Below are positions 4,093 through 29,820 of a stretch of DNA of 32,000 bases, in pieces. The notes beneath the pieces were generated by a model. It was given only the letters and a program-made list of their open reading frames with translations. It did not search any database and was not told where the DNA came from. Source of the DNA: Puniceicoccales bacterium. Lineage in GTDB: Bacteria > Verrucomicrobiota > Verrucomicrobiia > Opitutales > JAIRLG01. The stretch is from assembly GCA_031288595.1 (NCBI GenBank), contig JAITRB010000008.1, positions 20,806 through 52,805 on the forward strand. Direction: 5' to 3'. Positions within the stretch are counted from its first letter, which is position 1. Each line of letters opens with the position of its first letter. Both the position numbers and the translations under genes were made by a program.

Positions 4093-4187
4093 GGCTGTCT
4101 TTGCAGAGCAGGGTATGAAAACAGCGTTTTCATGCCCTGCTCTGTCGTCCGCTGCGCGGACGCTCCCGAAGGGAGCCAAAGACGGCC
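4093..4187 (+). repeat. Four-way-junction intergenic repeat, copy R2
   Basis: Closing stem GGCTGTCTTTG 4093-4103 / CAAAGACGGCC 4177-4187 (one T:G, 4096:4184). Long arm 4104-4122 / 4126-4144, 19 bp with one T:G (4114:4134). Arm2 GTCCGC-tgc-GCGGAC 4147-4161. Arm3 GCTCCC-gaa-GGGAGC 4162-4176. Confidence 0.85.
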
Positions 4188-4224
4188 CTGCAAAGATCCC
4201 CCTCATAGACATTCTCACCGCTCT

Positions 4225-6813
4225 TCAGTCAAGCACCAGGTTGAGAAGTTTCTGCGGGACCCAGATGATGCGGCGAATCGTCTTCTCGTCGAGGTAGGGG
4301 CGCAATTTTTCCCTGGCCAGAGCCGCCCGTAGGGCTTCTTCCCGACTGCAGTTCAGGGGGAGATCCAATTCATCCCTCGGCTTGCCATTGACCATGAGGA
4401 CGATGCGGCCGCGCTCGGCGACGAGGAGTTGCGGGTCGAATCGCGGCCATGGGGCCTTGCTGATGCTAAAAGTCTCCCCTAAACGACTCCAGAGCTCCTC
4501 GGCGATGTGGGGGGCGAAGGGGGCCAGGAGCTGGAGGAAGACCTTGGCCGAATGCCGGCTGAGGGAGGAGGAAGTGGCCCCATTGACGAAGATCATCATC
4601 TGGGAAATAGCCGTGTTGAAACGCAGCTGCTCGATATCCTCCGTCACCTTGCGAATCGTCTCGTGTAGTCGGGGAAGCAGAGCCTCGTCGTCTTCTTCGG
4701 CCCAATCCTGTCCCATTCCATCGTCCTGAATGAAGAGCCGCCATACCTTTTTTAGAAAGCGGGAGCAGCCCTCGATGCCCTGGGTATTCCAGGGCTTCAT
4801 CGCGTCCAGAGGACCGAGAAACATCTCGTAGAGCCGCAGCGTATCGGCCCCATGGCTTCGGATGACTTCGTCCGGATTAACCACATTACCACGGCTCTTG
4901 GACATTTTACTGCCGTCCTCGCCGAGGATAATGCCCTGATGGAAGAGATGTGGATAGGGTTCGGGCCTGTCGATGGCGGCGATGTCGAAGAGGAAGCGCT
5001 GCCAGAACCGAGCGTAGAGGAGGTGTAACACGGCATGTTCCGCTCCGCCGATGTAGAAATCCGGACTGCCCCAGTAGTGCAGGCTTCCGGGGTCGACCGG
5101 CGCCTGTAGATCGTGCGGACTGAGGTAGCGCAGGTGGTACCAGCAAGAACCGGCCCACTGGGGCATCGTGTGGGTCTCCCGTCTGGCGAAAACCCAGTCC
5201 TCACCCGAGGGGATGTCTTGGCTCTGTGGCCGAATCTCCCCTGTCCGGAGATGGACCAGGATTTCGCAGAAATCTTCAGCCCTCCTCAGCGGACTTTCGC
5301 CCTGATCCGAAGGCTGGTAGGATACCACCGGCGGCAACTGAAGCGGCAGCTCCTTCGAGCTCAGGGGGATGGCGATCCAGGTGATGTCTCCCTCCTGGTA
5401 GGAGATGGCCTTGGAAGGAAGGAATTCCCTGAAGTATAAATCGGGCAGGCTTAGAGCTCGCTCGTAATCCCCTTGCTGGATCCAGAAAATGGGAATCGGT
5501 TCCCCCCAGTAGCGCTGTCGAGAGAAGAGCCAGTCGCGCAATTTGTACTGCACGCAGGCCTTGCCGCGGCCCAGGGCTTCCAGCTGTGCCGTGATCTTCT
5601 GCCGCGCCTGCGCCGAATCCAGGCCATTGAAGGCTTCGGAATGAAAGAGGATCCCGTCGTCGCAGAAGGGGAGCTTGCAAGCCGTCTCGTCTCCCTTTGG
5701 GACTGGCTGGATGACGGGAAGGATGGCCAGTCCGAATTTCTGGGCGAAGGCGAAATCCCGCTCGTCATGGGCCGGAACCGCCATGACGGCGCCGCTGCCA
5801 TAGCTCCCGAGAACGTAGTCCGCGACCCAGATGGGAATGTTTTTCCCCGTCAGGGGATGGATGGCCTGGGCCCCGCTGAACACACCGGTTTTTTCCCGAG
5901 CCAGGCCACCGCGCTCCAAATCGCTCTTCCGCCGGGCCCGCTCGATATAATCCTCCACCTCTCCGCGCTGGGCCGCACTCGCGAGGATCGGCAGCAGCGG
6001 ATGTTCCGGTGCCAGAACCAGGTAGGTCACCCCGTAAATCGTGTCGCAGCGGGTCGTGTAGACGGCCAGCGAATCCACCCGTCCCTCGATGTCGAAGCGG
6101 ATCTCCGTCCCCTCCGAGCGACCGATCCAGGCCCGCTGCTGCTGCTTCGTCGACTCCGGCCAATCCAGGGCATCGAGGTTCTCCAAAAGCCTGTCGGCGT
6201 AGGCGGTGATGCGCAATATCCACTGGCGCAGATTGCGCCGTTCTACCGGATGATTCCCGCGCTCGGAACGGCCGTCGATGACCTCCTCATTGGCCAGCAC
6301 GGACTTCAGCTCAGGGCACCACCAGACTGGCCGCTCATCCACATAGGCAAGACCTTGCTTGAAGAGTTGTAGGAAAATCCACTGCGTCCAGCGGTAGTAG
6401 TCCGGATCAGTCGTATTGATCTCGCGCTCCCAGTCGATGGCAAAACCCAGGCGGCGAATCTGTTCCCGAAAATGCCCGATGTTCTGGGCGGTATTGATGG
6501 CCGGGGCCTGGCCGGTGAGAAGGGCATGCTGCTCGGCCGGAAGACCGAAGGCATCCCAACCCATTGGGTGCAGGACGTTATACCCGCAACTCCACTTATA
6601 ACGGGCCAGGATATCGGAGGCGGTATAGCCTTCCGGATGTCCGATATGCAGCCCGGCACCCGAAGGGTAGGGGAACATATCGAGAACGTAGTACTTTTTC
6701 TTCCCGCAATCGATGGGTTCCGTCGCGAAGGTCTTCTCCTCTAACCACCGCGCCTGCCAAAAGGCCTCAATTTTTTGGAAATCGTAAAATCCGCCATCGC
6801 CGTGCGCTTTCAT
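4225..6813 (-). CDS. leuS: Leucyl-tRNA synthetase
   Basis: ORF track, 862 aa. Class I signatures HIGHPEGY (HIGH) and KMSKS are present. ATG at 6813-6811. Confidence 0.96.
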   Translation of the reverse strand: MKAHGDGGFYDFQKIEAFWQARWLEEKTFATEPIDCGKKKYYVLDMFPYPSGAGLHIGHPEGYTASDILARYKWSCGYNVLHPMGWDAFGLPAEQHALLTGQAPAINTAQNIGHFREQIRRLGFAIDWEREINTTDPDYYRWTQWIFLQLFKQGLAYVDERPVWWCPELKSVLANEEVIDGRSERGNHPVERRNLRQWILRITAYADRLLENLDALDWPESTKQQQRAWIGRSEGTEIRFDIEGRVDSLAVYTTRCDTIYGVTYLVLAPEHPLLPILASAAQRGEVEDYIERARRKSDLERGGLAREKTGVFSGAQAIHPLTGKNIPIWVADYVLGSYGSGAVMAVPAHDERDFAFAQKFGLAILPVIQPVPKGDETACKLPFCDDGILFHSEAFNGLDSAQARQKITAQLEALGRGKACVQYKLRDWLFSRQRYWGEPIPIFWIQQGDYERALSLPDLYFREFLPSKAISYQEGDITWIAIPLSSKELPLQLPPVVSYQPSDQGESPLRRAEDFCEILVHLRTGEIRPQSQDIPSGEDWVFARRETHTMPQWAGSCWYHLRYLSPHDLQAPVDPGSLHYWGSPDFYIGGAEHAVLHLLYARFWQRFLFDIAAIDRPEPYPHLFHQGIILGEDGSKMSKSRGNVVNPDEVIRSHGADTLRLYEMFLGPLDAMKPWNTQGIEGCSRFLKKVWRLFIQDDGMGQDWAEEDDEALLPRLHETIRKVTEDIEQLRFNTAISQMMIFVNGATSSSLSRHSAKVFLQLLAPFAPHIAEELWSRLGETFSISKAPWPRFDPQLLVAERGRIVLMVNGKPRDELDLPLNCSREEALRAALAREKLRPYLDEKTIRRIIWVPQKLLNLVLD

Positions 6814-6875
6814 GGTGCAGATCTCTCTGATGTCATCCGATGGATGAGGCGAGGAGCTATTCCAATCCTTTCGCC

Positions 6876-8108
6876 CTAGGATGAGGGATGCTTAACGGGG
6901 ATCTGCTTCAGGTAATTGGCGAAGGGCAAGCCCTCCTCATCCCTCAGCTCGGGATTACCCTGGATGAGAGGCAGGGCATACCTTGAAAAAATAGGCTGGA
7001 CGTGGCAGGCATCTTCCTCCAACCAGTTGAGGGGAAATGCTTTTTCCGACTGGATGACATTCGACAGGTCCGTGAGGTCGTACTTCACGCCGTAGGAATT
7101 CCCCTCTTCCCGCAGGAGTGTCAGCATCTGTCCCGAATGCCCCTCGATGGCCCACCGTACCGCCTGGCGACCTCCGCCAAAGGCCTCTGTCAGGTCCGTC
7201 TGGGAGGCCCAGTGGGCCGCTGCTCCCTGGGTCGCGCCCAACGAGATGACGCGGACGGGCACATTGAGCTCGGCGTTGATCATGGCCTTCAGGAGGCTGC
7301 CTGCGCCGGCCATCGCCGCAGGAAAATCCGCCTTTGAAATGATGGAATTTCCCTCGGCATCGACGATGCCCTCGGCGACGACGAGGAGGCAGTGATTCAA
7401 GGACTGCAGGACGGTCTGGACGTCATTGAGCAGCTGCTCCTTGGAAAAGGCCACCTCCGGCAGATAGAGGATGTGAGGAGCATCCTCCGGATGATTCGCT
7501 CTCTTGGCCAAAGAGGCGCCGGCGGCCAACCAACCCGTGTGCCGTCCCGCGACCTCGACCACCGACACGAGGTGGGGAAGTCCAGAGGAGAGTCCGTCCA
7601 TGGCCACTTCCCGCACCGTCGTGGCGATGTACTTCAATGCACTTCCGTAGCCCGGGCAATGATCGGTCACGGCGAGATCGTTGTCAATGCTCTGGGGAAG
7701 CCCCATCGTCTGCAGCGGCCAGGCCTGTTCCTGGGCATAGCTGTGGAGGCGGAAGAGTTCTTCCTGCGCCGAGCGGTCACCGATGCTGAAGAAATAGCGG
7801 ATGTGATGATTTTTTAAAACTTCTAAAATGCGCGGAAAATCCTCCGCCTTCGAGGGACTGCGCGGCCCGAGGCCGAGGGCCGCACCGGCCCTCGTCTTCA
7901 GGGCCCGAATATTCTGCTGCGATTCGGCGGCCAGGTCGATGAAATGCCCCCCCAAAATTCCAGAAAATCCCCGCAATCCACCGTAAATTTCCCCGATGCA
8001 TTCGTGGTCTAGGGCCTCGGCGATGATACCGCTGAGACTCGCATTGCTCGCACAGGAAGCACTGCCGGACTGTATCACCAATAAATTGCCGCTCGCCATC
8101 GTTTCCAT
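6876..8108 (-). CDS. Phosphofructokinase-family protein (ATP- or PPi-dependent type undetermined) with degenerate catalytic motifs
   Basis: ORF track 6876..8171. The 8171 start is a TTG; the first ATG is at 8108-8106 (METMASGNLLVIQSG...). The PFK-family motifs GLPQSIDNDL and VVEVAGRHTGWLA are retained. The motifs corresponding to SGGDAPGMN, GGDGS and GHxQRGG read SGSASCASN, IGDRSA and GATQGAA. Confidence 0.75.
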   Translation of the reverse strand: METMASGNLLVIQSGSASCASNASLSGIIAEALDHECIGEIYGGLRGFSGILGGHFIDLAAESQQNIRALKTRAGAALGLGPRSPSKAEDFPRILEVLKNHHIRYFFSIGDRSAQEELFRLHSYAQEQAWPLQTMGLPQSIDNDLAVTDHCPGYGSALKYIATTVREVAMDGLSSGLPHLVSVVEVAGRHTGWLAAGASLAKRANHPEDAPHILYLPEVAFSKEQLLNDVQTVLQSLNHCLLVVAEGIVDAEGNSIISKADFPAAMAGAGSLLKAMINAELNVPVRVISLGATQGAAAHWASQTDLTEAFGGGRQAVRWAIEGHSGQMLTLLREEGNSYGVKYDLTDLSNVIQSEKAFPLNWLEEDACHVQPIFSRYALPLIQGNPELRDEEGLPFANYLKQIPVKHPSS

Positions 8109-8227
8109 ACGCTTCTCTCTTTGTAGATTTTCTGTAAGGGGAAAGCTGCTCTTTTTGGGAGGTGAAAGCAATCTAAAAACGGTCAGAGGGCCTTCGGGGT
8201 CTGTGAAAATTTCTCAGCGATTTCTGT

Positions 8228-8887
8228 TTGAAAATTTTTTACGGACTGCTAGATAAAAATTCCATGAGAGGAGAGGAATCTGGAGACCAAAGCCCGAAGG
8301 GCGTATCGGGGATGGACGCTGACTTCCGGGATGCATCGCGGAAATCCGCAGCTCCTACGGCGGAGGAGCTGGGCGCTGCGGCCGAGGGGATGGGCTCCCA
8401 AGGAATGCCTGTTTCTCCGGAGGAGAGGAAGTACCTGGCCGCCTATGTCCAGCTACAGGCTGATTTCGAGAATTTCAAAAAGCGGGCCGCACGGGAGCGG
8501 GAGGAATGGCTCAAGCTTTCCAATCGCCGGCTCATCGAGGAACTGCTGACCATCGTCGACCATCTCGACCTCGCCCTGCAGTCGGCCAAACCCGAAGATG
8601 AGAAGGGACAGCAGATCACCCAGGGCTTCGCGATGATCGTCGGGCAGTTTAAAAAGCTACTGGCCGAGCAGGGTTTGGTCGAAGTGGGGAAGGTCGGAGA
8701 GCCCTTCAACCCCAGAGATCACGAAGCGGTGGGTCAGAGCACCCATCCGACGGTCCCCATCGACCATATCTGCCAGCTCGTCCGGCCGGGCTATCGACTC
8801 CACGACTTCACCTTACGCCCCGCCTCGGTCATCGTATCCCATGGCCCAGAAAGGGAAAACAAGCCGAAGGAGGAAGTCCTCTCATGA
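8228..8887 (+). CDS. grpE: Nucleotide exchange factor GrpE (start codon uncertain; internal ATGs at codons 13 and 29 are alternatives)
   Basis: ORF track. [21 protein letters not shown] and the C-terminal ...FNPRDHEAV...[14 protein letters not shown] match GrpE. The stop TGA overlaps the dnaJ ATG (ATGA at 8884-8887). Confidence 0.88.
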
Positions 8888-10050
8888 GTGCAGCCGAGGA
8901 TTATTACGGGCTCCTGGGGGTATCCAAAACGGCGACGGAGGACGAGATCAAGAAGGCCTATCGGAAGATGGCCGTCAAATACCATCCGGATAAGAACCCG
9001 GGCGACAAGAATGCCGAGGAGAAGTTCAAGAAGATCTCAGCGGCCTATGAGGTACTCCATGACCCATCCAAACGCGCGGCCTATGACCGTTACGGAGCGG
9101 CGGCCTTCGATCCCCAGTCAGGTGGCATGGGCGGAGCGACCCGAGGAGGATTTCAGGGAAGCTTTCACCAGGAATTCGGAGGATTCTCCAATCCTTTTGA
9201 TATTTTCCGCGAGGTCTTCGGCGGGGGCATCGGCGAGTTCTTCGGCGGCGGCCGTTCCCACCGCAGTGGCTCCCGCTCCTCATCCGGAGCTGACCTGCGC
9301 TACGACCTGGAAATCACGCTCCTGGAGGCCTTTCGTGGGGTCGAGAAGACCCTAAGTTACCACCGCCATGTGGCTTGTACCCATTGCCATGGCAGTGGGG
9401 CGGAGAAGGGCTCTTCGCGTACTACCTGCGCGACCTGTCGAGGTTCGGGCTGTGTCACGACCTCCCAGGGCTACATGACGATTCAGCAGAGCTGCCCGCG
9501 CTGCCAGGGTCAGGGAGTGGTGATCGAAAAGCCCTGTCCGCACTGCTACGGCGAGGGAAGGGTCGTGGAGTCGACGACGACGAAGGTTCGGGTACCGGCC
9601 GGGATCGATTCCGGCATGCAGCTGCGCCTAGCAGGCTTCGGCGAGGTTGGGGAGCAGGGTGGGACTGCGGGCCATCTCTATGTGCGGGTAGAGCTAAAGG
9701 AGGACAAGCATTTCGAACGCCATGGAAATGACCTGCACTGCCGCGTGTCTCTGCCCTTTTCTTTACTGGTTCTCGGCGGCGAGACGAATATCGATACCAT
9801 CGACGGCCAGGCGATTTTGAAAATTCCGGCCGGCACGCAGGCCGAGAGCGTCCTGCGCGTCCGTGGGCAGGGAATGCCCATTCTCGAGCAGGGCGGTGCT
9901 CGGGGAGACCAGCTCGTCCACGTCGCCGTCGAGGTGCCGAAGAAATTGACCCATGAGCAGCGGGAAAAGCTAGAGGCCTTCGCCCAGGCCTGCAGCTCCT
10001 CTTCTAAAAGTAGCTTCTTCGACCGCCTCCGCGGCAGCTTCGGCCTCTGA
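8884..10050 (+). CDS. dnaJ: Molecular chaperone DnaJ (type I: J domain, G/F region, four CxxCxGxG repeats)
   Basis: ORF track. DYYGLLGV...YHPDKNPGD carries the HPD motif. The four zinc repeats are [24 protein letters not shown] and CPHCYGEG. Confidence 0.95.
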
Positions 10051-10107
10051 GACCGGGTTAGGGGAGAGATCCTGCTCCATGGGAGATCTTGCTTCTTTCA
10101 AGGGGGC

Positions 10108-10201
10108 GCTGTCTTTGGATTCCGGAGGAATCAGCCCGCTGCGCGGGCTCCAAGGGGAGAAAAAGGAAAAACTTTCCTTTTTCTCCCCTTGCAAAGACAG
10201 C
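10108..10201 (-). repeat. Four-way-junction intergenic repeat, copy R3 (inverted orientation)
   Basis: Closing stem GCTGTCTTTG 10108-10117 / CAAAGACAGC 10192-10201. Arm3 GATTCC-gga-GGAATC 10118-10132. Arm2 AGCCCGC-tgc-GCGGGCT 10133-10149. Long arm GGGGAGAAAAAGGAAA 10154-10169 / TTTCCTTTTTCTCCCC 10173-10188 (16 bp, perfect, polypurine/polypyrimidine). Confidence 0.88.
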
Positions 10202-10241
10202 AAAAAAATAGCCCTAGAGATACTTTTCCCCCGAGAAAGAC

Positions 10242-10934
10242 TCAGGCCATCGCCGGCAGGACGAGTTGCTTCTGAACGGCTGCCGCGAGTTCGCGAATTT
10301 CCCCTAGGGTTTCACCCATAGATTCCGTTTCTTTTCCGAGATCGAGGTAGCTCTGTTCCGCTTCATTCAGAAGAGACAGCGCGCGCTCGAAGTGCTGCGC
10401 ATCCCTGTGACATTCGGCCGCAGATAGCAACAAAATTGGATTTTTGGGAAAGAGATTGATGAGGAAGTCGTAGATTTTTGCAGCGGCCCCGATATCCTCG
10501 TTAGCCAGATCCTCCGCCAACATCACGTAGGCATAGAGATTGGGCTGTCCGTCGTTGGAAAAAAGGGACAGCCATTGGAACAGCTTTCCCGATAGCTCCG
10601 CCTTTCCCTGCTGCAGCAGGGCCTCTGCTTCCTGCTCCAGAGCGGACACCTCTTCCTCGGAAAGGGACTGAAGCGCGGCCTCTATTCCTTCCCTTTCGAG
10701 AACCTGGAAAATCTTAAGGCCGATGCTTTGGAATTCCTCCTGCCGCAGAAGGTGCTGCCAGGCATCCCGATAGGCGCGTTGCGACTGTTCCAGGGCCCTT
10801 TGCAGAGCCGGCTCTTCCTTTTCCGGAAGGGGGATTCTCCGCAGCATAGCCTCGATCCCAACCCCAAAGGCCTCCATTAGCTCCTCCCAGTTCGCCTCCC
10901 CATCGTGCCCAGGTTCCCCTTTTTCCCTATCCAT
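10242..10934 (-). CDS. Hypothetical acidic helical-repeat (TPR-like) protein; start uncertain (ATG 10934, or ATG 10877 which is preceded by GGGAGGAG)
   Basis: ORF track 10242..11132, but its first 66 codons run through repeat R4 and were trimmed. The C-terminal half (LYAYVMLAEDLANEDIGAAAKIYDFLINLFPKNPILLLSAAECHRDAQHFERALSLLNEAEQ) has a TPR-like helical-hairpin character. Confidence 0.55.
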   Translation of the reverse strand: MDREKGEPGHDGEANWEELMEAFGVGIEAMLRRIPLPEKEEPALQRALEQSQRAYRDAWQHLLRQEEFQSIGLKIFQVLEREGIEAALQSLSEEEVSALEQEAEALLQQGKAELSGKLFQWLSLFSNDGQPNLYAYVMLAEDLANEDIGAAAKIYDFLINLFPKNPILLLSAAECHRDAQHFERALSLLNEAEQSYLDLGKETESMGETLGEIRELAAAVQKQLVLPAMA

Positions 10935-11040
10935 AACGGAGATGGATTCTAGAAAAAATGTTCGTTCTTGGCAAAGTAAAAATGGAGAGATGCGTCGGGG
11001 TCGATGGGACAGGAGAAATAGAGAGGGATAAGGGAAGCTT

Positions 11041-11128
11041 TCCCGCTGTCTTGGAATCCCTTTGGGATTCGCCCGCTTCGCGGGCCGCAGGGAGGCCGCT
11101 CCGCGGCCTCCCTGCCAAGACAGCGGGA
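11041..11128 (-). repeat. Four-way-junction intergenic repeat, copy R4 (inverted orientation)
   Basis: Closing stem TCCCGCTGTCTTGG 11041-11054 / CCAAGACAGCGGGA 11115-11128 (14 bp, perfect). Arm3 AATCCC-ttt-GGGATT 11055-11069. Arm2 GCCCGC-ttc-GCGGGC 11071-11085. Long arm CAGGGAGGCCGC 11088-11099 / GCGGCCTCCCTG 11103-11114. Confidence 0.88.
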
Positions 11129-11173
11129 ACACAGCAAGCCCGGAGGATCCGTGGGGCTGGGGGATACCAACCC

Positions 11174-13741: not shown

Positions 13742-13766
13742 CTTGAATGTCCTCGACGGGAGATTT

Positions 13767-14231
13767 TTAGGGAGACTTCGTCCCTTCCTCCTCTAAACAG
13801 GCGATCTGTAGCCGTCCAAAGCCGCTGCGTTTGGCCATGGCGCTTACCTGACACAGGATACCGACAGACAGGTCTTTGTCCGGACGCAGAAGCAGAGTGG
13901 CGGGGCGAAGGGTGTGCTGTGAGAGGAAATAACGCAGGGCTCCTTCCAGAGTCTTCAGGGTGAGAATCTGGCCGTCGAAAAAAAAGAGCTGATCATTCGA
14001 CAAGGTCAGAACGCCCAGAGTCGGCGCGGCTGACAGCGGGCCCGGGAGCTGGGGCAAGGCCACATTCATTCCCGGAGAGAGGATGAAGCGGGAGCTCAAG
14101 AGAGAAAAGGCGAAGATGAAGAATCCCACATTAGCTATGGCCCAGAAGTCCAGCCAATGCTCCGGCGGCGGCAGATGGCTGTGCCGGATAAAGGTGGATA
14201 TTTTCATGGCATGAGCTCTTTCACGCTTCAT
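13767..14231 (-). CDS. exbD: ExbD/TolR-family biopolymer transport protein
   Basis: ORF track 13767..14234 begins at a GTG; the ATG is at 14231-14229. It has a single N-terminal TM segment (WAIANVGFFIFAFSLLSS), is small, and sits immediately after an ExbB/TolQ-type gene with stop/start overlap (TGATG). Confidence 0.7.
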   Translation of the reverse strand: MKRERAHAMKISTFIRHSHLPPPEHWLDFWAIANVGFFIFAFSLLSSRFILSPGMNVALPQLPGPLSAAPTLGVLTLSNDQLFFFDGQILTLKTLEGALRYFLSQHTLRPATLLLRPDKDLSVGILCQVSAMAKRSGFGRLQIACLEEEGTKSP

Positions 14232-14941: not shown

Positions 14942-15003
14942 CCTTTCGTCTGTGAAAATTTTACTTGTCCGGAGTTGATTTCAAGTTTCCCTGGAGGGAA
15001 ACT

Positions 15004-15655: not shown

Positions 15656-15756
15656 TTTCGCTGTCTTTGCAAGGAGGAGAGGAGGGATTCTTCCCTCCTC
15701 TCCTCCTTGTGGCCCGCTCTGCGGGCCGATTCCTTTGGAATCCAAAGACAGCGAAA
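15656..15756 (+). repeat. Four-way-junction intergenic repeat, copy R5
   Basis: Closing stem TTTCGCTGTCTTTG 15656-15669 / CAAAGACAGCGAAA 15743-15756 (14 bp). Long arm CAAGGAGGAGAGGAGGGA 15670-15687 / TCCCTCCTCTCCTCCTTG 15692-15709 (18 bp, perfect, polypurine). Arm2 GGCCCGC-tct-GCGGGCC 15711-15727. Arm3 GATTCC-ttt-GGAATC 15728-15742. Confidence 0.9.
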
Positions 15757-17675: not shown

Positions 17676-17761
17676 TTCGCCGTCTTTGCAGCGCGCCCAC
17701 GGAGTGGGCGCGCTGGGGCCCGCTCCGCGGGCGATTCCTTTTGGAATCCAAAGACGGCGAA
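17676..17761 (+). repeat. Four-way-junction intergenic repeat, copy R6
   Basis: Closing stem TTCGCCGTCTTTG 17676-17688 / CAAAGACGGCGAA 17749-17761. Long arm CAGCGCGCCCAC 17689-17700 / GTGGGCGCGCTG 17704-17715. Arm2 GCCCGC-tcc-GCGGGC 17718-17732. Arm3 GATTCC-tttt-GGAATC 17733-17748. Confidence 0.9.
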
Positions 17762-18154
17762 GGAATACCCGCCGTGAGAATTTTTCATTTTTAGGTTTAA
17801 AGACCCCATGGCCCTGTCCCTAGGGCATTGACCTTTGAAGAATGGCTGGTCTTGTAGACTGTAAAGCATCCATCAGCACTTGCCTTTGCCAGAACATCCG
17901 CTGGGTTCTGGTAAAGAGATGGTTGTTAAAAATTTTCCCTTTTACCGCTTTGGGAAGGGCTGGAGGCCTATGGCTGTATCCTGCAGATGAGACTGGTTCG
18001 TAGAGAAGTATTAAAATGGATTTTTCGGGCACAAGTCCTCTAGGCGGATATAGGGACGGGTAAACCTCCCTCTTAGTGCAGAATCTTTCTCCTGCGGAAC
18101 GAAGGGCGATCCTTATCTTTACTCGGTGGGAGGCCATTTCTCGGCTCATCACCG

Positions 18155-18247
18155 GTGCGCCGCCTTGAAGCCCTATGGGCTTCTGTCCGCTACGCGGACA
18201 GCGTGGACAGCCGTGGCCCCCCACGGCTGTCCACGCAGGCGGCGCAC
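18155..18247 (-). repeat. Four-way-junction intergenic repeat, copy R7 (inverted orientation; same architecture, unrelated closing-stem sequence)
   Basis: Closing stem GTGCGCCGCCT 18155-18165 / AGGCGGCGCAC 18237-18247. Arm3 GAAGCCC-tat-GGGCTTC 18167-18183. Arm2 TGTCCGC-tac-GCGGACA 18184-18200. Long arm GCGTGGACAGCCGTGG 18201-18216 / CCACGGCTGTCCACGC 18221-18236 (16 bp, perfect). Confidence 0.8.
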
Positions 18248-18322: not shown

Positions 18323-18574
18323 TTAAGGCCTTCTTCGGCGCTGGAACTTACTCTGGAATTTCTCGACACGACCAGCGGTGTCGACGAGGCGCTTCTCGCC
18401 GGTGTAAGCGGGATGAGAATCGGAGCTCACGTCGCGGTGGATGAGTTCATACTCCACTCCATCGATCAGCTCCTTGTTCCTGGAACGCAGGGTCGAAATC
18501 GTCAGAAAGCGCCGGCCGGTGGAGATGTCGCAAAAACATACCGGTCTGGCATCAGGGTGGATCTCCTTTTTCAT
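18323..18574 (-). CDS. rpmE2: 50S ribosomal protein L31, type B (Zn-ribbon-less, YkgM-like)
   Basis: This is the internal part of ORF-track entry 18323..18772, with the ATG at 18574-18572. The sequence is MKKEIHPDARPVCFCDISTGRRFLTISTLRSRNKELIDGVEYELIHRDVSSDSHPAYTGEKRLVDTAGRVEKFQSKF. DVSSDSHPAYTG replaces the second CxxC of type A L31, as in E. coli YkgM (DVSSKSHPFYTG). Confidence 0.9.
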   Translation of the reverse strand: MKKEIHPDARPVCFCDISTGRRFLTISTLRSRNKELIDGVEYELIHRDVSSDSHPAYTGEKRLVDTAGRVEKFQSKFQRRRRP

Positions 18575-18591
18575 GGCGATGACAATTTTTC

Positions 18592-18717
18592 TTAACCCTG
18601 GCGAGCCTTGAAGCGCGGATGGCTCTTGCAGATCACGTAAATCCGCCCCTTGCGCCGCACGACCTGGCAGTCCGCATGGCGACTCTTCAAGGACTTTAAA
18701 GATGACACGACCTTCAT
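18592..18717 (-). CDS. rpmJ2: 50S ribosomal protein L36, C-minus (YkgO-like) form; 41 codons, below the ORF-track size cutoff
   Basis: Manual translation of the minus strand from ATG 18717-18715 to TAA 18594-18592 gives [41 protein letters not shown]. This closely resembles E. coli YkgO ([41 protein letters not shown]...). GGAG lies upstream (GGTGGAGATATTATG). It sits 17 nt upstream of the L31 gene on the same strand. Confidence 0.88.
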
Positions 18718-18948: not shown

Positions 18949-18962
18949 GCTGGAAACAGACT

Positions 18963-21812: not shown

Positions 21813-21817
21813 CGCAT

Positions 21818-22981: not shown

Positions 22982-23025
22982 GATACGCTGAAAGCCTTTA
23001 GCCTGAAGCCGGATTTGACATTTTT

Positions 23026-24048
23026 ATGAAGAATCGCTTCCTCAAGCTCTCCTGTCTGTCGACACTATTGCTACTGTCGGCTTGCCGGACGACAATCGAT
23101 AACCTGACACCTGCTCGTCTGCCGCAGAATTCCTCTCACGTCTACACCATGACGATGGCAGTTCACGTGCCAAGTCGCAAAATCATTCCCCAGAGTCTGC
23201 GCCCCTTCATCGTCATCGATGGGAAGCGACAACCTATGAAACGGAGCGAACTTGGGAAGAACATCTTCGTCTGCGACTACCGCTTCCCGGCCTGGCGTGA
23301 CCGAGCCCATTATTACTATGAGCTGGAATACGATATTCCCTCTGTTTGGGAGCTGCTGACCAGGACGAAACGTTCCCGGCTCTACGAGTTTCAGATTTCG
23401 AACCGCTGCCTCTTGTCCCTCGATGCCTATCGTGGTATTTCGGGGAACAAGGTCGCGGTCCTGGGCCGTGGTTTTCGCAGTGATGACCGCGTCGTCTTCG
23501 ATGACAGGCTGGCGACAACACGGGTTCCCAATGACCACATGATGGAGTTTATCGTCCCGCCGGTAGAGGCCGACAGAAATTACCGTTTGACGCTGCAGGG
23601 AAGCGGAGGCTCTCTAAACCTGGGCGATTTCTTCGTCGACCCCGCGCCGATCTACGCCTCGCCGGAGACCCTGCAGCTGTCCGGTTCCGAACGGCAGGAT
23701 ATTGCTTTCAGAGTGGATCATCCGGTGCCTTCCAGCGGCCTATACCTGAACGTAACGACGGATATCCCAGAGGACATCGTGATGCCAGAGGTCGCGATTC
23801 CCGGGGGACAATGCTCAGTGAACACCCAAATCTCAGGCATGGGCTACCAGGCCAAAGGCTCTCTCTTCATTGCGGCTCCTGGGTATCAGCTGCTCGTCAT
23901 TCCGGTAAACGTAGAAGGTAGGGCAAAGGAAACACCGGCCATCCCCGCAGCCAGCGCCTTTGCGCCTTTTCCAGAAGAAGCGACCCCACAAGCCTCTTCC
24001 ATCGATATCGACCACCGCAGCGATGAAGATGTGATTGTCATCGAGTGA
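23026..24048 (+). CDS. Hypothetical lipoprotein with a probable IPT/TIG-like beta-sandwich segment and an acidic C-terminal tail
   Basis: ORF track. The signal peptide carries a lipobox (MKNRFLKLSCLSTLLLLSAC). The middle segment GNKVAVLGRGFRSDDRVVFDDRLATTRVPNDHMMEFIVPPVEADRNYRLTLQGSGG resembles IPT/TIG repeats. No other family was recognised. Confidence 0.6.
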   Translation: MKNRFLKLSCLSTLLLLSACRTTIDNLTPARLPQNSSHVYTMTMAVHVPSRKIIPQSLRPFIVIDGKRQPMKRSELGKNIFVCDYRFPAWRDRAHYYYELEYDIPSVWELLTRTKRSRLYEFQISNRCLLSLDAYRGISGNKVAVLGRGFRSDDRVVFDDRLATTRVPNDHMMEFIVPPVEADRNYRLTLQGSGGSLNLGDFFVDPAPIYASPETLQLSGSERQDIAFRVDHPVPSSGLYLNVTTDIPEDIVMPEVAIPGGQCSVNTQISGMGYQAKGSLFIAAPGYQLLVIPVNVEGRAKETPAIPAASAFAPFPEEATPQASSIDIDHRSDEDVIVIE

Positions 24049-24115
24049 AAAATTCCTAAGCTTCGGTGAAGTCCGCTCCCTCGCGGACGTTTTGGGAGGG
24101 ATATTGGGGAGAGAT

Positions 24116-24772
24116 ATGCGGAAAGGGAGATTTTTCTCCGATTCGTCAAAGGCGCGCTCTGCGATTTCGGGAATGACGTTGATCGAGATGCTGACGGTCA
24201 TCTCCATCATGCTGCTCTTGCTGATGATCATCGTACCTTCCGTGGACTCGGCTCGTATCTCGGTGTTACAGAAGCAGGGACAGATGCAGTTCCAGCGATT
24301 CATCCATGCCCTGCGCGACTATTACGCGGAATACCAAGCCTACCCGCCCTTCATCAACACGGATGAAAGAGATTCCAGTCCATTCGGCTTATGTAGTCTC
24401 CATGGAGACAATAGCCAGAACTTCATCCGCGCCCTGACGGGAAAGGAACCTGGAGGGGCAGATCTCTCTGCCGCCAATTTGCACCTCAATCCCAAGCGCC
24501 TCGCATTTCTAGAAATTGTCCCCGAGGACTTGTTCAGAAAAACGACAGGGGATAGGGATGAGAACCAAATTGCAGATGTCTTCAATAATACGCAGATCTT
24601 CATCCTCGCGGAAAACCCTTCCGACCAGGACAGGCGCATCCCACAAGCTCTTTTCACCGGTACTCATGCCCCGATTCAGGCCTATGTGCCGGCAACGGGG
24701 CTGCTGAGTGACTTGGCAATTTGGTCTATCGACCCCAACGACTCGCGGAAAAACCTGAGGTCCTGGAAATAG
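24116..24772 (+). CDS. Prepilin-type N-terminal cleavage/methylation domain protein (pseudopilin-like)
   Basis: ORF track 24035..24772. The start was trimmed to ATG 24116, which is preceded by GGGAGGGATATTGGGGAGAGAT. The class III signal is SG|MTLIEMLTVISIMLLLLMIIVP, with Glu at +5. Confidence 0.75.
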   Translation: MRKGRFFSDSSKARSAISGMTLIEMLTVISIMLLLLMIIVPSVDSARISVLQKQGQMQFQRFIHALRDYYAEYQAYPPFINTDERDSSPFGLCSLHGDNSQNFIRALTGKEPGGADLSAANLHLNPKRLAFLEIVPEDLFRKTTGDRDENQIADVFNNTQIFILAENPSDQDRRIPQALFTGTHAPIQAYVPATGLLSDLAIWSIDPNDSRKNLRSWK

Positions 24773-24853
24773 AAGGATCTTAGCTTCATTTTCGCCGGAA
24801 TGATTTTCCCCAAGATAGTGCTGGGACCTGCGTGGGAAAATGTCGTCAAGGGG

Positions 24854-24878
24854 AAGGCCTCACGGGGCCTTTTCTCTT
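24854..24878 (+). terminator. Weak candidate rho-independent terminator for the pseudopilin-like gene (overlaps the malQ 3' end)
   Basis: AAGGCC-tcacgg-GGCCTT (24854-24871) followed by the T-rich TTCTCTT. The stem is only 6 bp. Confidence 0.25.
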
Positions 24879-26416
24879 CCGTAGATGTGAGCGAGCTCTT
24901 GAAGGTAGCGGGAAGAGCGGGTTTGAAGCCCCTGCAAGGTTTCGCTTGTGCAGCGCCACGTCCAATTACCCCCACAGGTCGAAGGAGTGTTGAAGCGCGC
25001 GTTCGAACCGAGTGCCAGTAGGTCGGGAAGACTCAGAATCAAGAGTCGGCAGGGCGAGGCATAGGCCCAACGAATCATATCCCAGGCAATCGAACTGCCG
25101 TCACTGCGGAAATAGCGCCGTACGGAATCCTGCATTTCCGGAGAGAGGGAGGCGTACCAAGCGCTTGTGGTGTCGTTGTCGTGTGTCCCCAGATAGAGCA
25201 CGGAATTCTTCTCATGCATGTGGGGCAGGTAGGGATTTTTCGGATCGCCGCTGAAGGCGAATTGCAGGACATCCATGCCCGGAAACCGGGAAGCCCTGAG
25301 GAGTTCATGGACCCCCGATGAGGGAAGGCCGAGGTCTTCGGCGATGCACTTCAAGTCGGGAATTTTTTTTAAAATTTCTCTGAAGAACGCAATTCCCGGT
25401 CCTGGGCGCCATCGGCCACACCGAGCTTCCTCTGCAGCGGCAGGAATGGCCCAGTAGTCGTAAAATCCGCGAAAATGGTCGAGACGGGTGATGTCGAAAG
25501 AGCGCTGGGCCTGCCGCAGTCGCTCCACCCACCAGTCGTAGTGCGTTTTTTCGAGCTCATCCCAGTCGAAGAGGGGATTGCCCCAGAGCTGACCTTCGGC
25601 GGAATAGGCGTCCGGAGGAACCCCGGCCACACATCGCGCACGCCCATTTTTATCGCTTTGAAAGATGCAGCGATGGCCCCAAAAATCGGCACTGTCCATC
25701 CCGGGGAAAATCGGAAGGTCGCCGATGAGAGAAACTCCCCTGCTGTGCGCATACTCCAACAAATGCTGCCATTGCCGATGGAAGGTGAATTGAATGAAAT
25801 CGTGCTTCTTCTGCCGTAATGGGAGCTCTCTGTAGAGTTCACAGGCATTTCCTTTCAGGAATTTCGCGGTACTTTCCCCACTCCGAAATGCCTTTGGCCA
25901 CCGCCCAAGGGGCTGTCCCTGGAAGATTTCCTTGAGCGCCATGAAGAGGCTATAATTGGGCAACCAGAACGACTGCTCTTCGCAGAAGCGGATGAATGGC
26001 GGGTCATCGTCCTGTCCCAAGGAGAGAAAACGTTCGAATGCCCGCTGACATAGGGATGGGACTTGGAGATAGAGCTGGCCGTAATCGACGCGTTCCTGAG
26101 GCAGGTGCCGCAACGAGTCCAAGTCGGCACCTGACAGATAGTCCCTGCGCACGAGCTCATCGAGGTCGATGAAGTAGGGATTACCGGCAAAAACGGAAAA
26201 GCTTTGGTAGGGCGAATCGCCAAAGCCGGTCGGGCCGATGGGGCAGAGCTGCCAGTAGCGAAATCCGCATTCTGCCAAAAAGTCGACCCAGCGCTCCGCC
26301 GCTTCTCCTAGACAGCCGATACCCTGTCGACTGGGGAGGGAAGAGAGGTGCAAGAAGATTCCGGCCGCCCTTTCCCGCAACCAGAATTTTTTACCTTCCT
26401 CCTTCTCGAGCCCCAT
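24860..26416 (-). CDS. malQ: 4-alpha-glucanotransferase (amylomaltase)
   Basis: ORF track, 518 aa. N-terminal AGIFLHLSSLPSRQGIGCLGEAAERWVDFLAECGFRYWQLCPIGPTGFGDSPYQSFSVFAGNPYFIDLDEL is characteristic of GH77 MalQ. Confidence 0.92.
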   Translation of the reverse strand: MGLEKEEGKKFWLRERAAGIFLHLSSLPSRQGIGCLGEAAERWVDFLAECGFRYWQLCPIGPTGFGDSPYQSFSVFAGNPYFIDLDELVRRDYLSGADLDSLRHLPQERVDYGQLYLQVPSLCQRAFERFLSLGQDDDPPFIRFCEEQSFWLPNYSLFMALKEIFQGQPLGRWPKAFRSGESTAKFLKGNACELYRELPLRQKKHDFIQFTFHRQWQHLLEYAHSRGVSLIGDLPIFPGMDSADFWGHRCIFQSDKNGRARCVAGVPPDAYSAEGQLWGNPLFDWDELEKTHYDWWVERLRQAQRSFDITRLDHFRGFYDYWAIPAAAEEARCGRWRPGPGIAFFREILKKIPDLKCIAEDLGLPSSGVHELLRASRFPGMDVLQFAFSGDPKNPYLPHMHEKNSVLYLGTHDNDTTSAWYASLSPEMQDSVRRYFRSDGSSIAWDMIRWAYASPCRLLILSLPDLLALGSNARFNTPSTCGGNWTWRCTSETLQGLQTRSSRYLQELAHIYGREKAP

Positions 26417-26457
26417 ATCCCTTTCCTAAGCTCCTCTTCCCTGAGGAGATTAGAGGA

Positions 26458-28671
26458 TCAGGAGTATAGCATATCACCTGGAATTTGCAAAATTTCTCGT
26501 TCGAGAAAGAGCTGGAAACGCTCGAAAACCTGACAGCGGATATGCTCGATGAGGCGGCGAACATCTTCGGAGGAGGCGTGACCGCGATTGACGATGAAAT
26601 TGGCATGCTGCTCGGAAATTTCCGCACCACCTAGGCGAAAGCCGCGGAGGCCGCAGCGATCAACGAGTTCCCAGGCCTTCGGACTTCCGGTGCCCGGATT
26701 GCGAAAGATACTGCCGGCATTCGGCCATCGCGGCTGCTGCTCCAGGCGTTGCCGCAAGAATTTTTTCTGTAAAGCCCAGGAGGTTTCCGGTGCCACCGGG
26801 GGGAATTCAAAAAGCGCCGAGAGAATGCACTCGCCGTTCCGGCGAAAGCCGCGGCGATATTGCCAGTTGATCTCGTTTTTGGGGATCCAGCTCTTCCGTC
26901 CATCGCGGTCAATGCGGTGAATCGCCAATAGGTAGTCGGACAGGACTACACCGTTGGCCCCGGCATTCATGGCCAGCGCTCCGCCCACCGTTGCCGGAAT
27001 GGCACCGAGGGCCTCGATGCCACCGAGGGAATGGGAGCTCAGGTGATGACAGAGCGCCCGCAGGGACATGCCGGCCCCGACCTGGACCCGGTTCTTCTCT
27101 TTCAGGCAAAAGCCTCTAAAGACCGCCTGATTCAAGGAGAGGACGAGACCGGGAACGCCCCTGTCCTCGCAGAGGATGTTGGAACCATTGCCCAGAACGA
27201 ATACGGGGAGACTGTAATCTCGGGCAAGGAGGAGGATTTCCCGAAGCTGCTCCTCGTTCTGCGGCTCGGCCCAAAACCGTGCAGGGCCGCCGATTCTGAA
27301 GCTCGTCCGGTGGGCCATAGGCTCATTTTCCCTCACCGACATTGTCTGAAGCTTAGTATTGGCCTTCGATTTTTTCTCCAATGCCCTGGCCTGAATTTCC
27401 GGCAGCGAGTCCAGAAAGGTGGAGGGACCCACGCTTAGGTAAACACAGCAGAATGCCCCGTCCGCTGGCCAAAGCCATGGTTCGATCGCATCCGGTATAG
27501 CCGGGATCGCCGAGACGGTTTCGCGGGCGAGGCTTGGGGGAAGGTGCTCGGCGATGCGCTCGCAAGTCCCTTCCGGATTAAAGGACTCATCGGAAGGGTC
27601 GGTGGGAACGAAGCAAATGCGTTCTGCCAATCGGAGCGCTTCGGCGAACTCGCGGGCATACTGCTGGACACGGGAAAAGCGATGCGGGCGGAAGATGACG
27701 CCCAGGCGATGGGCCGGATAGCGGTGGCGAAAATGCTCAAGCGAGGCGCGAATTTCGTTCGGATGATGCGCGTGGTCGCAGAAGAAGAGATGCTTCTCTA
27801 TCGTGGCCAGAAAATTATTGCGCTGGAAAATTCCTGGGAAATGGGAAAAGGCTTCGAGTGCGGGGAAGTCGCCCGTCATGTGCCGAAAGGCTTCGGCGAT
27901 GAGGTTGTAGTCGATGCGCCGAAAGCCCTGAAACAGGGCCTGGAATTCTCGGGAGTAGGGCAGGTGTTCGCACTCGCAGGGGCAGTGCTCACGGCCGGAC
28001 TCTTCCGCCAGACGCCGGAGCAGTGCGTCCTCTTTGGGGAAGAAAACGCACCGTCGGGTGCGTCGAAACAGTTCCTGAAAGCTGTGCTGGATGGCCTCGA
28101 CGCTGCCGTAGTTGACGATATGATCGGAGCCGATGTTGAGGACAAGGGTCATCTCGGGAGAGAAATGATCCATGGTCCGGTCGCTCTCGTCGATTTCGGA
28201 GACCACCCATTCACTGGAGGCATCGTGGTGGGCCGGTGCCACCTGAGAATCGCAGAAAAGTCCGCCCAGCAGATAGCTGCAGGGGATTCCCTGTTCCCGC
28301 AGGATATGGATGAAGGTACCAGTCGTGGTCGTCTTGCCATTCGAGCCGATAATGGCGATGAGTTTTTTCTCCTCCACCATCCGGGCCCAGAAAACCCCGC
28401 GGCGGGTCAGGGGAAGCTGCCGCTCTAGGGCTTTTTGGTAGAGCGGATGTTCCTCGTGGATGGCAGTGGAAAAGATGACCTCGTCGATATTTTGGGGAAA
28501 TTCCGGAAGGACCAGCAGGACTACCTTGGCCGTCTCGAGGTGATGCCGCACCCGCTCGGCCAGACCATCATCCCAGCCATAGACCTCATGTCCCTGCTCC
28601 GCGAGGTAGATGGCCAGCGGTGCCATCCCCATGCCCCCTACACCCAACAGTAGATAGGATTTTTGTTCCAT
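26458..28671 (-). CDS. murCB: Fusion protein: UDP-N-acetylmuramate--L-alanine ligase (MurC, N-terminal ~440 aa) plus UDP-N-acetylenolpyruvoylglucosamine reductase (MurB, C-terminal ~290 aa)
   Basis: ORF track, 737 aa. MurC motifs: LLLGVGGMGMAPLAIYL, IAIIGSNGKTTTTG, DHAHHPNEI. MurB motifs: HRTSFRIGGPARFWAEP, FVLGNGSNIL, GAIPATVGGALAMNAGANG, WPNAGSIFRNP, GGAEISEQHANFIVN. Confidence 0.9.
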   Translation of the reverse strand: MEQKSYLLLGVGGMGMAPLAIYLAEQGHEVYGWDDGLAERVRHHLETAKVVLLVLPEFPQNIDEVIFSTAIHEEHPLYQKALERQLPLTRRGVFWARMVEEKKLIAIIGSNGKTTTTGTFIHILREQGIPCSYLLGGLFCDSQVAPAHHDASSEWVVSEIDESDRTMDHFSPEMTLVLNIGSDHIVNYGSVEAIQHSFQELFRRTRRCVFFPKEDALLRRLAEESGREHCPCECEHLPYSREFQALFQGFRRIDYNLIAEAFRHMTGDFPALEAFSHFPGIFQRNNFLATIEKHLFFCDHAHHPNEIRASLEHFRHRYPAHRLGVIFRPHRFSRVQQYAREFAEALRLAERICFVPTDPSDESFNPEGTCERIAEHLPPSLARETVSAIPAIPDAIEPWLWPADGAFCCVYLSVGPSTFLDSLPEIQARALEKKSKANTKLQTMSVRENEPMAHRTSFRIGGPARFWAEPQNEEQLREILLLARDYSLPVFVLGNGSNILCEDRGVPGLVLSLNQAVFRGFCLKEKNRVQVGAGMSLRALCHHLSSHSLGGIEALGAIPATVGGALAMNAGANGVVLSDYLLAIHRIDRDGRKSWIPKNEINWQYRRGFRRNGECILSALFEFPPVAPETSWALQKKFLRQRLEQQPRWPNAGSIFRNPGTGSPKAWELVDRCGLRGFRLGGAEISEQHANFIVNRGHASSEDVRRLIEHIRCQVFERFQLFLEREILQIPGDMLYS

Positions 28672-28738
28672 AAATGCGGGATAAAATTGCCATAAAAAGG
28701 AGGAAGGTTTGCCTCTGCAACAAGATTAATTCGGCACA

Positions 28739-29647
28739 ATGAGCCCTATGGCAGAGATCATTGATGGTAAAAAACTAGCGGAGACCCTGTATCAGGGACT
28801 TCGCCGGAGAATGCGGGGCCTTGAGAAAAATCCACCGGCCCTGGCTTTGGTGTGTGTCGGCGAGCATCCAGAGTCCCAGATCTACCTGCGGCAGAAGCGG
28901 AGAGTGGCTGAAGAGCTCGGCATCCGCGTGCAGCCGGAATTTCTCCCGGCCGAAGCCAGCCGTGAGGAGATCTTCGCCACCATCGACCGGCTCAACGCAG
29001 ACACTTCTGTCCACGGGATTCTCGTCCAATCGCCGCTACCCCATCGCGCCCTGGAGCTTGAGGTCTTCAACCGCGTCGCGGCGGAGAAGGATGTCGATGG
29101 CTTCGGAGCCCTCAACCTCGGCAGGCTCTGCCAAGGAGATCCTTCCGGTTTCTGGCCCTGCACACCGGCGGGCGTGCATCGGATTCTCCGCTCGATCGGC
29201 ATTCCCATCGCGGGGAAGCACGCGGTTATCTTGGGCCGCAGCCTCATTGTCGGGAAGCCCATGGGTCTGATTTTACTGCAGCGCGGTCCCTGGGCCGATG
29301 CGACGGTGAGCTTGGGGCATTCCATGACCCGAGATCTAGATGAACTCACCCGTCAGGCCGATATTCTGGTCAGCGCCATGGGACAGCCGGCCCGGGTTAA
29401 GGCCTCCATGGTAAAGCCCGGGGCTATCGTCATCGACGTGGGCCTCACGCGTGTTCCCGACCCGAGCCAGGCATCGGGCCATCGGCTTCAGGGCGATGTC
29501 GCCTTCGAAGAGGTTTCCCAAGTGGCCTCTTTCCTCACGCCCATCCCGGGTGGTGTGGGGCCGATGACCGTCGCTGAGCTGATGGCCAATACTCTGAAGG
29601 CCTATGAACGGCAGAGCGGTCGGATTGCCCCCTCCGAGGAAGCTTGA
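28739..29647 (+). CDS. folD: Bifunctional methylenetetrahydrofolate dehydrogenase / methenyltetrahydrofolate cyclohydrolase
   Basis: ORF track. IIDGKKLAE..., GILVQSPLP, DVDGF, GKHAVILGRSLIVGKPM and PIPGGVGPMTVAELM are all FolD motifs. The start could instead be ATG 28748. Confidence 0.94.
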   Translation: MSPMAEIIDGKKLAETLYQGLRRRMRGLEKNPPALALVCVGEHPESQIYLRQKRRVAEELGIRVQPEFLPAEASREEIFATIDRLNADTSVHGILVQSPLPHRALELEVFNRVAAEKDVDGFGALNLGRLCQGDPSGFWPCTPAGVHRILRSIGIPIAGKHAVILGRSLIVGKPMGLILLQRGPWADATVSLGHSMTRDLDELTRQADILVSAMGQPARVKASMVKPGAIVIDVGLTRVPDPSQASGHRLQGDVAFEEVSQVASFLTPIPGGVGPMTVAELMANTLKAYERQSGRIAPSEEA

Positions 29648-29738
29648 AAATCGCCTCGGGCACGCCCATCCCGGATGGAATTTTTATTCTCAGTAGAGCT
29701 GGTGAGCGATTGCCCAAAATCTCTGATTGTTCTCCGGT

Positions 29739-29820
29739 GGCTGTCTTTGCCGCATGAAAATGTCCATTTTCATGCGGGGGCTCGCTCTGCGAGCGATCCC
29801 TTTGGGATCCAAAGACAGCC
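29739..29820 (+). repeat. Four-way-junction intergenic repeat, copy R8
   Basis: Closing stem GGCTGTCTTTG 29739-29749 / CAAAGACAGCC 29810-29820, extendable by 3 more pairs including T29738:G29821. Long arm CCGCATGAAAAT 29750-29761 / ATTTTCATGCGG 29766-29777. Arm2 GCTCGC-tct-GCGAGC 29780-29794. Arm3 GATCCC-ttt-GGGATC 29795-29809. Confidence 0.9.

Follow-up and report, generated by a model that had tools for sequence, protein, structure and literature searches.

We wanted to understand how long hairpins at the gene ends of a bacterial chromosome can be almost perfectly paired while sharing hardly any sequence with one another. The question is raised by a stretch of 32,000 nucleotides from a Puniceicoccales bacterium of the Verrucomicrobiota (assembly GCA_031288595.1, contig JAITRB010000008.1, positions 20,806 to 52,805 of the forward strand), called here the window. 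In an earlier description made from its letters, the sequence-only reading, eight copies of an element were listed, each with a near-perfect palindromic long arm, and these arms were said to be little alike. Three origins were proposed for them: a process creating palindromes de novo or converting one arm to the other, capture of different inserts at a fixed site, or selection on a specificity hairpin proper to each copy. The eight copies with their near-perfect long arms were confirmed, and we found that they are members of an old family of nested-palindrome repeats in the Puniceicoccales. The whole account that we favour, and hold to be probably right with a good deal of room for doubt, is that this family is vertically inherited, that its arms are kept paired by arm-to-arm template switching together with selection, and that it forms a structure at gene ends.

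A motif search, a structural scanner and a covariance model agree on eight elements in the window and no further copy (R1 to R8, Table 1). The motif GCTGTCTTTG, with at most one mismatch, occurs 13 times where 1.9 occurrences are expected, in inverted pairs. The scanner, purpose-written for the structure, gave eight matches with scores of 34 to 43, and no match scoring at least 30 in 876 kb of unrelated genomes. The covariance model, built later, recovered the same eight copies and none additional. The arms had been listed correctly, including the polypurine/polypyrimidine arm of R3 and the polypurine arm of R5; the range given for them, 4104-29777, leaves R1 (2235-2331) outside.

Each element measures 82 to 103 nt and is built of three back-to-back hairpins (H1, H2 and H3, in this order) set between the two halves of a closing stem. 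The closing stem has 9 to 14 bp, H1 (the long arm) 12 to 20 bp, and H2 and H3 6 to 7 bp each, with loops mostly of 3 nt. We observed that the minimum-free-energy (MFE) fold of all eight window copies is a four-way junction formed by the closing stem and the three hairpins, with nearly equal energy on either strand. The junction holds 0 to 4 unpaired bases in total. The same fold was found in all 16 copies of a first-round set, made of the eight window copies and eight from relatives, and in six more copies from low-GC relatives; the full comparative set comprises 23 full copies, from fragmented contigs of metagenome-assembled genomes (MAGs).

Across the helices of the first-round set we counted 653 Watson-Crick pairs, nine G·T, two A·C, two other mismatches and two bulges, and the defects were spread across all four helices. 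Perfection had been described as a trait of the long arm. As the closing stem, H2 and H3 are as clean as H1, and all of them covary, this view was abandoned. Pairing of the long arm had been put at 11 to 19 bp with at most one T:G; in the window, H1 has 12 to 19 Watson-Crick pairs and its sole defects are one T·G, in R2, and one bulge, in R1. Perfect hairpins of at least 11 bp with a loop of 3 to 5 nt number six in the window, every one an H1 arm, and dinucleotide shuffles of the window contained none. In the alignment of the 16 copies, 92% of the cells were paired and two-sided changes were seen at 30 of the 42 pairs. This level was reached by none of 500 shuffles, and registers slid by 1 to 3 columns paired at 50% or less. 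H1 was the most variable helix in both sequence and length. Conserved sequence clusters at the junction, in CTTTG/CAAAG and in the first pairs of H1, H2 and H3, and the ends of the element read GCYGYCTTTG/CAAAGRCRGC. The closing stem reaches 0 to 5 pairs past the conserved core, with bases that are copy-specific yet complementary. Since this outer part varies as H1 does, conservation radiates outward from the junction, and in distal H1 and the outer closing stem the sequence is free and the pairing is required.

Strong covariation in all four helices is also what a strand-specific structured RNA would display, that is, a small RNA or a cis-acting element of the 3' untranslated region whose helices are kept by selection on RNA pairing alone, with H1 as a sequence-free spacer helix. 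That the elements are conserved relative to their flanks agrees with such an RNA as well. However, conservation is lowest in the loops and junction bases, where functional RNAs usually show it most; the loops, only 3 nt long, become inverted; typical structured RNAs contain far more G·U pairs; and there was no match to an Rfam family. Orientation to the genes is moreover mixed, with about nine sense and four antisense loci, and it flips between orthologous loci. We therefore regard a structured RNA as a doubtful explanation, to which the strand of the G·T pairs is also relevant (see below).

We turned to relatives, whose contigs were reached through homologues of EF-Ts, the permease and MutS; orthology of the loci was taken from the flanking genes. 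The orthologous proteins are 73-91% identical to those of the window (EF-Ts 73-90%, permease 83%, MutS 79-91%). Close relatives (88-91% protein identity, 61-63% GC) carry orthologous copies after tsf (L129a, L130a) and after mutS (L135), and two further copies downstream of PFOR (L129, L130). Distant relatives (73-83% protein identity, 44-46% GC) carry copies after tsf, leuS, dnaJ, def, the permease gene and rpmB, and between exbD and mutS. These were detected with the covariance model, which recovered imperfect copies of the low-GC relatives that the strict structural scanner had missed. Copies downstream of tsf were found in five genomes; in a relative at 66% identity, no copy was present in 20 kb. 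At four of six loci (tsf in all five genomes, dnaJ, def and mutS) the elements keep their orientation to the flanking genes; it is inverted at leuS (L131b compared with R2 and L139b) and at the permease gene (L133b compared with R6). The copy downstream of PFOR is present in L129 and L130 and absent from L131, and most loci are occupied in all relatives of this between-genome comparison. Orthologous elements are 81-97% identical, their 80-nt flanks 45-57%, and unrelated sequence 49%. Elements that remain alike between flanks at the level of unrelated sequence must be old, positionally stable and constrained.

Beyond these relatives, a scan of a genome collection with the loose pattern GTCTTTG...CAAAGAC gave one true copy (L032) among the matches listed, the rest being chance matches. 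A metagenome scan with a stricter pattern gave seven chance matches and no true copy, and two scans of viral contigs gave one chance match and then none, with no true copy.

The saturated flanks also bear on another possibility, namely that the elements belong to an active or recent non-autonomous mobile element, similar to miniature inverted-repeat transposable elements (MITEs) or REPINs, with subfamilies defined by H1 and arms that are perfect because the copies are young. Such an element would account for the near-identical copies found at different loci and in different MAGs of the low-GC relatives, for the R2-type element at a second locus in L129 and L130, and for relatives' contigs that break inside elements. 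However, flanks that are saturated around elements that are not indicate that the window copies are old and not young. Positions, and mostly orientations, are conserved across relatives at 73-91% protein identity, no transposase was found in the window or beside any copy, none of the 23 copies has a target-site duplication, and the family lacks a GTAG/CGTC tag. In addition, the window copies are more perfect than their presumed low-GC master, which has two to three defects. For these reasons we consider recent mobility unlikely.

We then compared the long arms themselves. Within the window, the claim that they are little alike held: none of the 28 pairs of H1 arms is significantly similar after multiple-testing correction, although four have P < 0.05 (best P = 0.006). 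In contrast, H1 is significantly alike between R4 and L135, between R1 and L130a, and among R2, L129b and L130b (P ≤ 0.002). Between R4 and L135, an A-T pair has been replaced by C-G, another pair has turned into A·C, and in the loop GGA has given way to TCC, its exact reverse complement. Between R1 and L130a, the eight basal pairs of H1 are identical; above them, GCAAG/CTTGC has become TCGGT/ATCGA, which amounts to three two-sided changes and one G·T, and the loop is inverted (GGGA/GGA versus TCC). H2 of the same two copies has gone from CCTGC/GCAGG to CCGGC/GCCGG. Half-converted states were seen in L129: H2 of its tsf copy has a T·C, and H1 of its PFOR copy has a C·T. Arms that are significantly similar and differ by compensated changes indicate that H1 is inherited and evolving, not replaced. 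The sequence-only reading had proposed comparing orthologous loci for a long arm that changes while the rest stays fixed; as seen here, H2 changes too, and H1 is inherited with compensation.

H1 types are also shared between loci. L129 and L130 carry the R2-type H1, H2 and H3 together at another locus, downstream of PFOR, meaning that whole elements have been duplicated or converted. In the low-GC relatives, a single H1, CGGTAAGGGAAAAATGCAAAGC-GGGA-GCTTTCATTTTTCCTTACCG, recurs across loci and MAGs and carries two to three conserved defects. Long arms falling into a few families of common descent with many imperfect stems had been named as the pattern that would speak against unrelated, perfect arms; it is seen in this sister lineage, as one imperfect H1 family spread over loci and genomes. 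H1 can even be lost while the rest persists, since a copy after tsf in L139 (L139a, 9733-9789, minus strand, GCA_031255915.1; 43.7 bits) has kept the closing stem, H2 and H3 and has no H1. We considered whether R3 and R5 owe their purine-rich arms to the low-GC master arm and dropped the idea, the shuffle test giving P = 0.15 and 0.97.

These comparisons leave very little room for two of the three origins first proposed, unrelated sequences captured at a fixed site and a specificity hairpin particular to each copy, which we now consider highly improbable. The lack of significant likeness among the eight window arms is what had suggested them. Capture does not agree with an H1 that is inherited between orthologues and changes pair by pair, nor does copy-specific recognition agree with the same H1 type at two unrelated loci, with one H1 sequence at all low-GC loci, or with the persistence of a copy lacking H1. 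The family reveals no system that generates diversity or captures inserts. As to the remaining origin, arm-to-arm conversion fits the way in which the arms change, through inverted loops, compensated transversions and inversions, whereas a de novo origin of the palindromes is not borne out.

Template switching is supported as the way in which the arms change. In short replication template switches, the nascent strand would copy the opposite arm and so keep the two arms of a palindrome alike, with selection for a stable hairpin acting at the same time; the same switches would also invert loops and, occasionally, whole elements. With constraint on nothing but its pairing, H1 would come to look unrelated from copy to copy. 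The shift of GC content in the lineage, from about 46% to 58-63%, would contribute to this divergence, and the rise probably sped the turnover of an arm that we infer to have been originally A-rich. Template switching has been shown to repair stems, to introduce several compensatory changes in one event and to turn loops round (PMC8794818), and to homogenise the arms of inverted repeats and invert their spacers (PMC8604942). In our set, the H1 loop has gone from GGA to TCC in two independent orthologous pairs. By point mutation this would need three simultaneous substitutions, and its being seen twice points to a process at the DNA level. Among all loops, 21 pairs are reverse complements, none is related by reversal only and none by complement only, against null means of 3.6-7.5; because related copies are counted as independent, we take this statistic as no more than supportive. 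Inversion has also affected whole elements, at leuS (L131b) and at the permease gene (L133b). Almost all loops are 3 nt long. Compensated transversions are present, for which a G·T pair cannot serve as the intermediate step. Of all pairs, only about 1.4% are G·T. The raw count of single-sided changes on the canonical strand, nine G·T and two A·C, would suit a structured RNA. Yet once inherited duplicates are removed, about three events stand against two, and there is no strand preference.

Several observations weigh against the account of old, vertically inherited elements changing by template switching. The H1 arms of the window have no significant similarity to the low-GC H1 in the shuffle test, so divergence in place is deduced from position and orientation, not from sequence. 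The near-identical copies at different loci of the low-GC relatives are less readily explained by quiet vertical inheritance than by copies that have recently spread or converted one another. Compensated changes could likewise result if selection acted on an RNA hairpin alone. The loop-pair count suffers from the relatedness of the copies, and some loop differences, such as GCC versus GGC, can be explained by single substitutions. The evidence base consists of 23 full copies on fragmented MAG contigs and of 32 kb of the source genome. Finally, the function at gene ends is one that we purely infer.

That function is suggested by where the elements lie. In all eight window copies the distance from a stop codon to the element is 37-213 nt, and elements fill most co-directional or convergent gene-end spacers of the window. 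Where a promoter-like site is visible, they precede it, as with TTGCCA-17-TAGAAT at 10974-10946 (minus strand). Classical terminator-like sites are not enriched in the window (23 compared with 21 expected). Read in the direction of the upstream gene, the elements lack the trailing T-run that an intrinsic terminator would require, and the matches of the terminator scanner inside them are made up of H2 and, after it, the T-rich H3 arm. Given the mixed orientation noted above, the role of the element would not depend on orientation. Most likely the elements provide gene ends with a REP-like structure that works either way round, which is the least certain part of our account. They would stop transcription, hold back 3' exonucleases or be bound by a protein as a DNA structure, all of them roles suggested for REP and BIME. 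We also considered terminator hairpins as the insertion target of the elements; this was rejected, as the T/A runs beside the closing stems lie on the wrong side.

Going further, the nested-palindrome cloverleaf might have been domesticated as the general gene-end signal of the lineage, with a host protein that recognises the four-way junction, be it DNA or an RNA of either strand, and with helices kept perfect by frequent self-templated switching that flips loops or even the whole element. We offer this as a speculation that is more likely wrong than right. If true, it would be a cis-element whose sequence is upheld by a mutational mechanism and not by selection on each base. If template switching holds, the family would be a clean bacterial example of long hairpins that stay perfect while their sequence drifts, and a useful test case, since its independent loci are many and the process could be followed at three nested levels (loops, arms and whole element). 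The family is also a candidate gene-end signal in a phylum where classical terminators are scarce.

The genes between which the elements lie, in a window of 58% GC, are housekeeping genes: PFOR (N-terminal part), tsf, rpsB, leuS, pfk, grpE, dnaJ, mutS, exbBD, def, an iron ABC permease gene, rpmE, rpmJ, alaS, hemN, malQ, a murC-murB fusion, folD and priA. The fusion (26458-28671, minus strand) is a single open reading frame (ORF) of 737 aa with a MurC-like and a MurB-like half, as judged from the translation alone. The small genes rpmE (L31, MKKEIHPD...) and rpmJ (L36) lie at 18323-18711 (minus strand) inside longer mechanical ORFs. In the interval between R6 and R7 (17760-18157, about 400 nt) there is no convincing ORF and no Rfam match. 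The gene rpmB follows the permease gene in L133 and was not found in the window by tblastn. The promoter-like site TTGCCA-17-TAGAAT, upstream of the TPR-like gene, is kept in L135 (about 3600-3640), where it is among the few flank segments conserved with the window, and a TTGCCA motif of similar kind stands upstream of rpsB in the window.

Table 1. The eight elements of the window. Positions are those of the window; bits, covariance model score; L numbers refer to relatives
Copy	Position	Strand	Bits	Closing stem	H1	H2	H3	Place	In relatives	Remark
R1	2235-2331	+	78.9	ATCGCCTTTG/AAAGGCGAT	2245-2287, 19 bp, 1 bulge, loop GGGA	GCCTGC-ATC-GCAGGC	GAGCCC-GAA-GGGCTC	213 nt 3' of tsf stop, antisense to tsf	orthologues after tsf in L129, L130, L131, L139	divergent B-type
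R2	4093-4187	+	91.5	GCTGTCTTTG/CAAAGACGGC	4104-4144, 19 bp, one T·G, loop AGC	GTCCGC-TGC-GCGGAC	GCTCCC-GAA-GGGAGC	spacer from leuS stop to rpsB promoter region	same spacer occupied in L131, L139	
R3	10107-10202	-	95.5		10151-10191, 19 bp, perfect, polypurine/polypyrimidine	AGCCCGC-GCA-GCGGGCT	GATTCC-TCC-GGAATC	between convergent dnaJ and TPR-like gene	L139 copy after dnaJ, same orientation	
R4	11044-11125	-	77.2	GCTGTCTTGG/CCAAGACAGC	11087-11115, 13 bp, perfect, loop GGA	GCCCGC-GAA-GCGGGC	GAATCCC-AAA-GGGATTC	48 nt 3' of mutS stop, upstream of promoter-like site 10974-10946	orthologue L135 3407-3488, 89% identity, H1 loop inverted	
R5	15659-15753	+	93.3		15670-15709, 18 bp, perfect, polypurine	GGCCCGC-TCT-GCGGGCC	GATTCC-TTT-GGAATC	43 nt 3' of def stop	L136 also carries a copy after def	
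R6	17678-17759	+	69.6	GCCGTCTTTG/CAAAGACGGC	17689-17715, 12 bp, perfect, loop GGA	GCCCGC-TCC-GCGGGC	GATTCC-TTTT-GGAATC	106 nt 3' of iron ABC permease stop	L133 copy at same position, inverted	
R7	18158-18244	-	60.2	GCGCCGCCT/AGGCGGCGC	18201-18236, 16 bp, perfect, loop GGGG	TGTCCGC-GTA-GCGGACA	GAAGCCC-ATA-GGGCTTC	73 nt 3' of rpmE		most divergent copy
R8	29739-29820	+	71.5		29750-29777, 12 bp, perfect, loop GTCC	GCTCGC-TCT-GCGAGC	GATCCC-TTT-GGGATC	91 nt 3' of folD stop, upstream of priA		

Some arrangements in the relatives deserve mention in their own right. In L130, two elements of different subtypes stand face to face between convergent genes (5371-5465, plus strand, and 5582-5675, minus strand), each sense to its own upstream gene. 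At a contig end of L130 (10260-10393) there is a module resembling H2 and H3 (GTCCCGC-GCA-GCGGGC, GAGCCC-TGC-GGGCTC, CAAAGGCGGCC); three more perfect hairpins, differently arranged, come before it. The module matches the covariance model weakly (18 bits) and may be a rearranged or composite element. In L135, the element lies about 200 nt farther from mutS than in the window, beyond a stretch (3150-3400) that the window lacks and that looks internally repetitive, with GTT/CGT-rich units. Contigs break off within an element, or no more than about 45 nt from one, in L121 (1-45, same strain), in L133 (11930-11963) and at the starts of L129 and L130. The repeats probably fragment MAG assemblies in this way, a practical effect being contigs that are broken inside them.

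Finally, we compared the family with known systems. Rfam gave no match at the gathering threshold, and below it only chance matches to microRNA hairpins, far under the threshold; ARAGORN found no tRNA or tmRNA. Integron attC sites resemble the elements in having a conserved structure with free central sequence, and they are recognised as a folded single strand. They differ from the elements, which have no R''/R' core sites (RYYYAAC ... GTTRRRY), no extrahelical bases or conserved bulges, and no cassette array or integrase, and whose neighbours are housekeeping genes in both orientations. MITEs (Correia, ERIC, RUP, Nezha) and the modular BOX elements are of similar size, intergenic, highly structured by prediction and divided into subfamilies, and have terminal inverted repeats that pair. 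Terminal inverted repeats are present here as the 9-14 bp closing stem of every copy, and no direct repeat of at least 3 nt abuts any of the 23 copies. Unlike the one long imperfect hairpin of MITEs, the interior consists of three separate perfect palindromes. We know of no parent insertion sequence for the Puniceicoccales element.

Mutation by template switching, as described for quasipalindromes, predicts the multi-base compensated changes, the perfection and extension of stems and the inverted loops (PMC8794818; PMC8604942). It differs in having been described for rRNA, microRNA genes and yeast inverted repeats and not for bacterial dispersed repeats, and here it is drawn from comparisons rather than reconstructed on a tree. 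The inverted terminal repeats of adeno-associated virus (A-B-B'-C-C'-A') also nest small palindromes whose inner parts occur in two orientations, and the inversions inside our elements bring to mind the flip and flop states of parvovirus ends. The viral repeats, however, sit at the ends of linear genomes and come about through hairpin-primed replication, whereas the elements are internal to a chromosome and hold three inner palindromes.

REP elements carry GTAG or CGTC tags and are also abundant in Opitutus terrae (PMC3733652). Like REP, BIME and REPIN sequences, the elements are GC-rich, intergenic, multi-copy palindromes found mostly after gene ends and in either orientation, and the roles proposed for REP and BIME, as terminator, mRNA stabiliser or protein-binding site, would suit them as well. 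In contrast to the single stem-loop of 20-40 nt, or doublet, of REP, they have a closing stem and three hairpins in 82-103 nt. None of GTAG, CTAC, CGTC and GACG stands consistently at the base of any helix in the 23 copies, most of which have none of them. There is no RAYT gene in the 32-kb window or in the short MAG contigs of the relatives, and, in another difference from REP, the positions of the elements are conserved between species. Altogether, the family would be functionally nearest to REP and BIME, with a different architecture, and we file it among the interspersed palindromic repeats.

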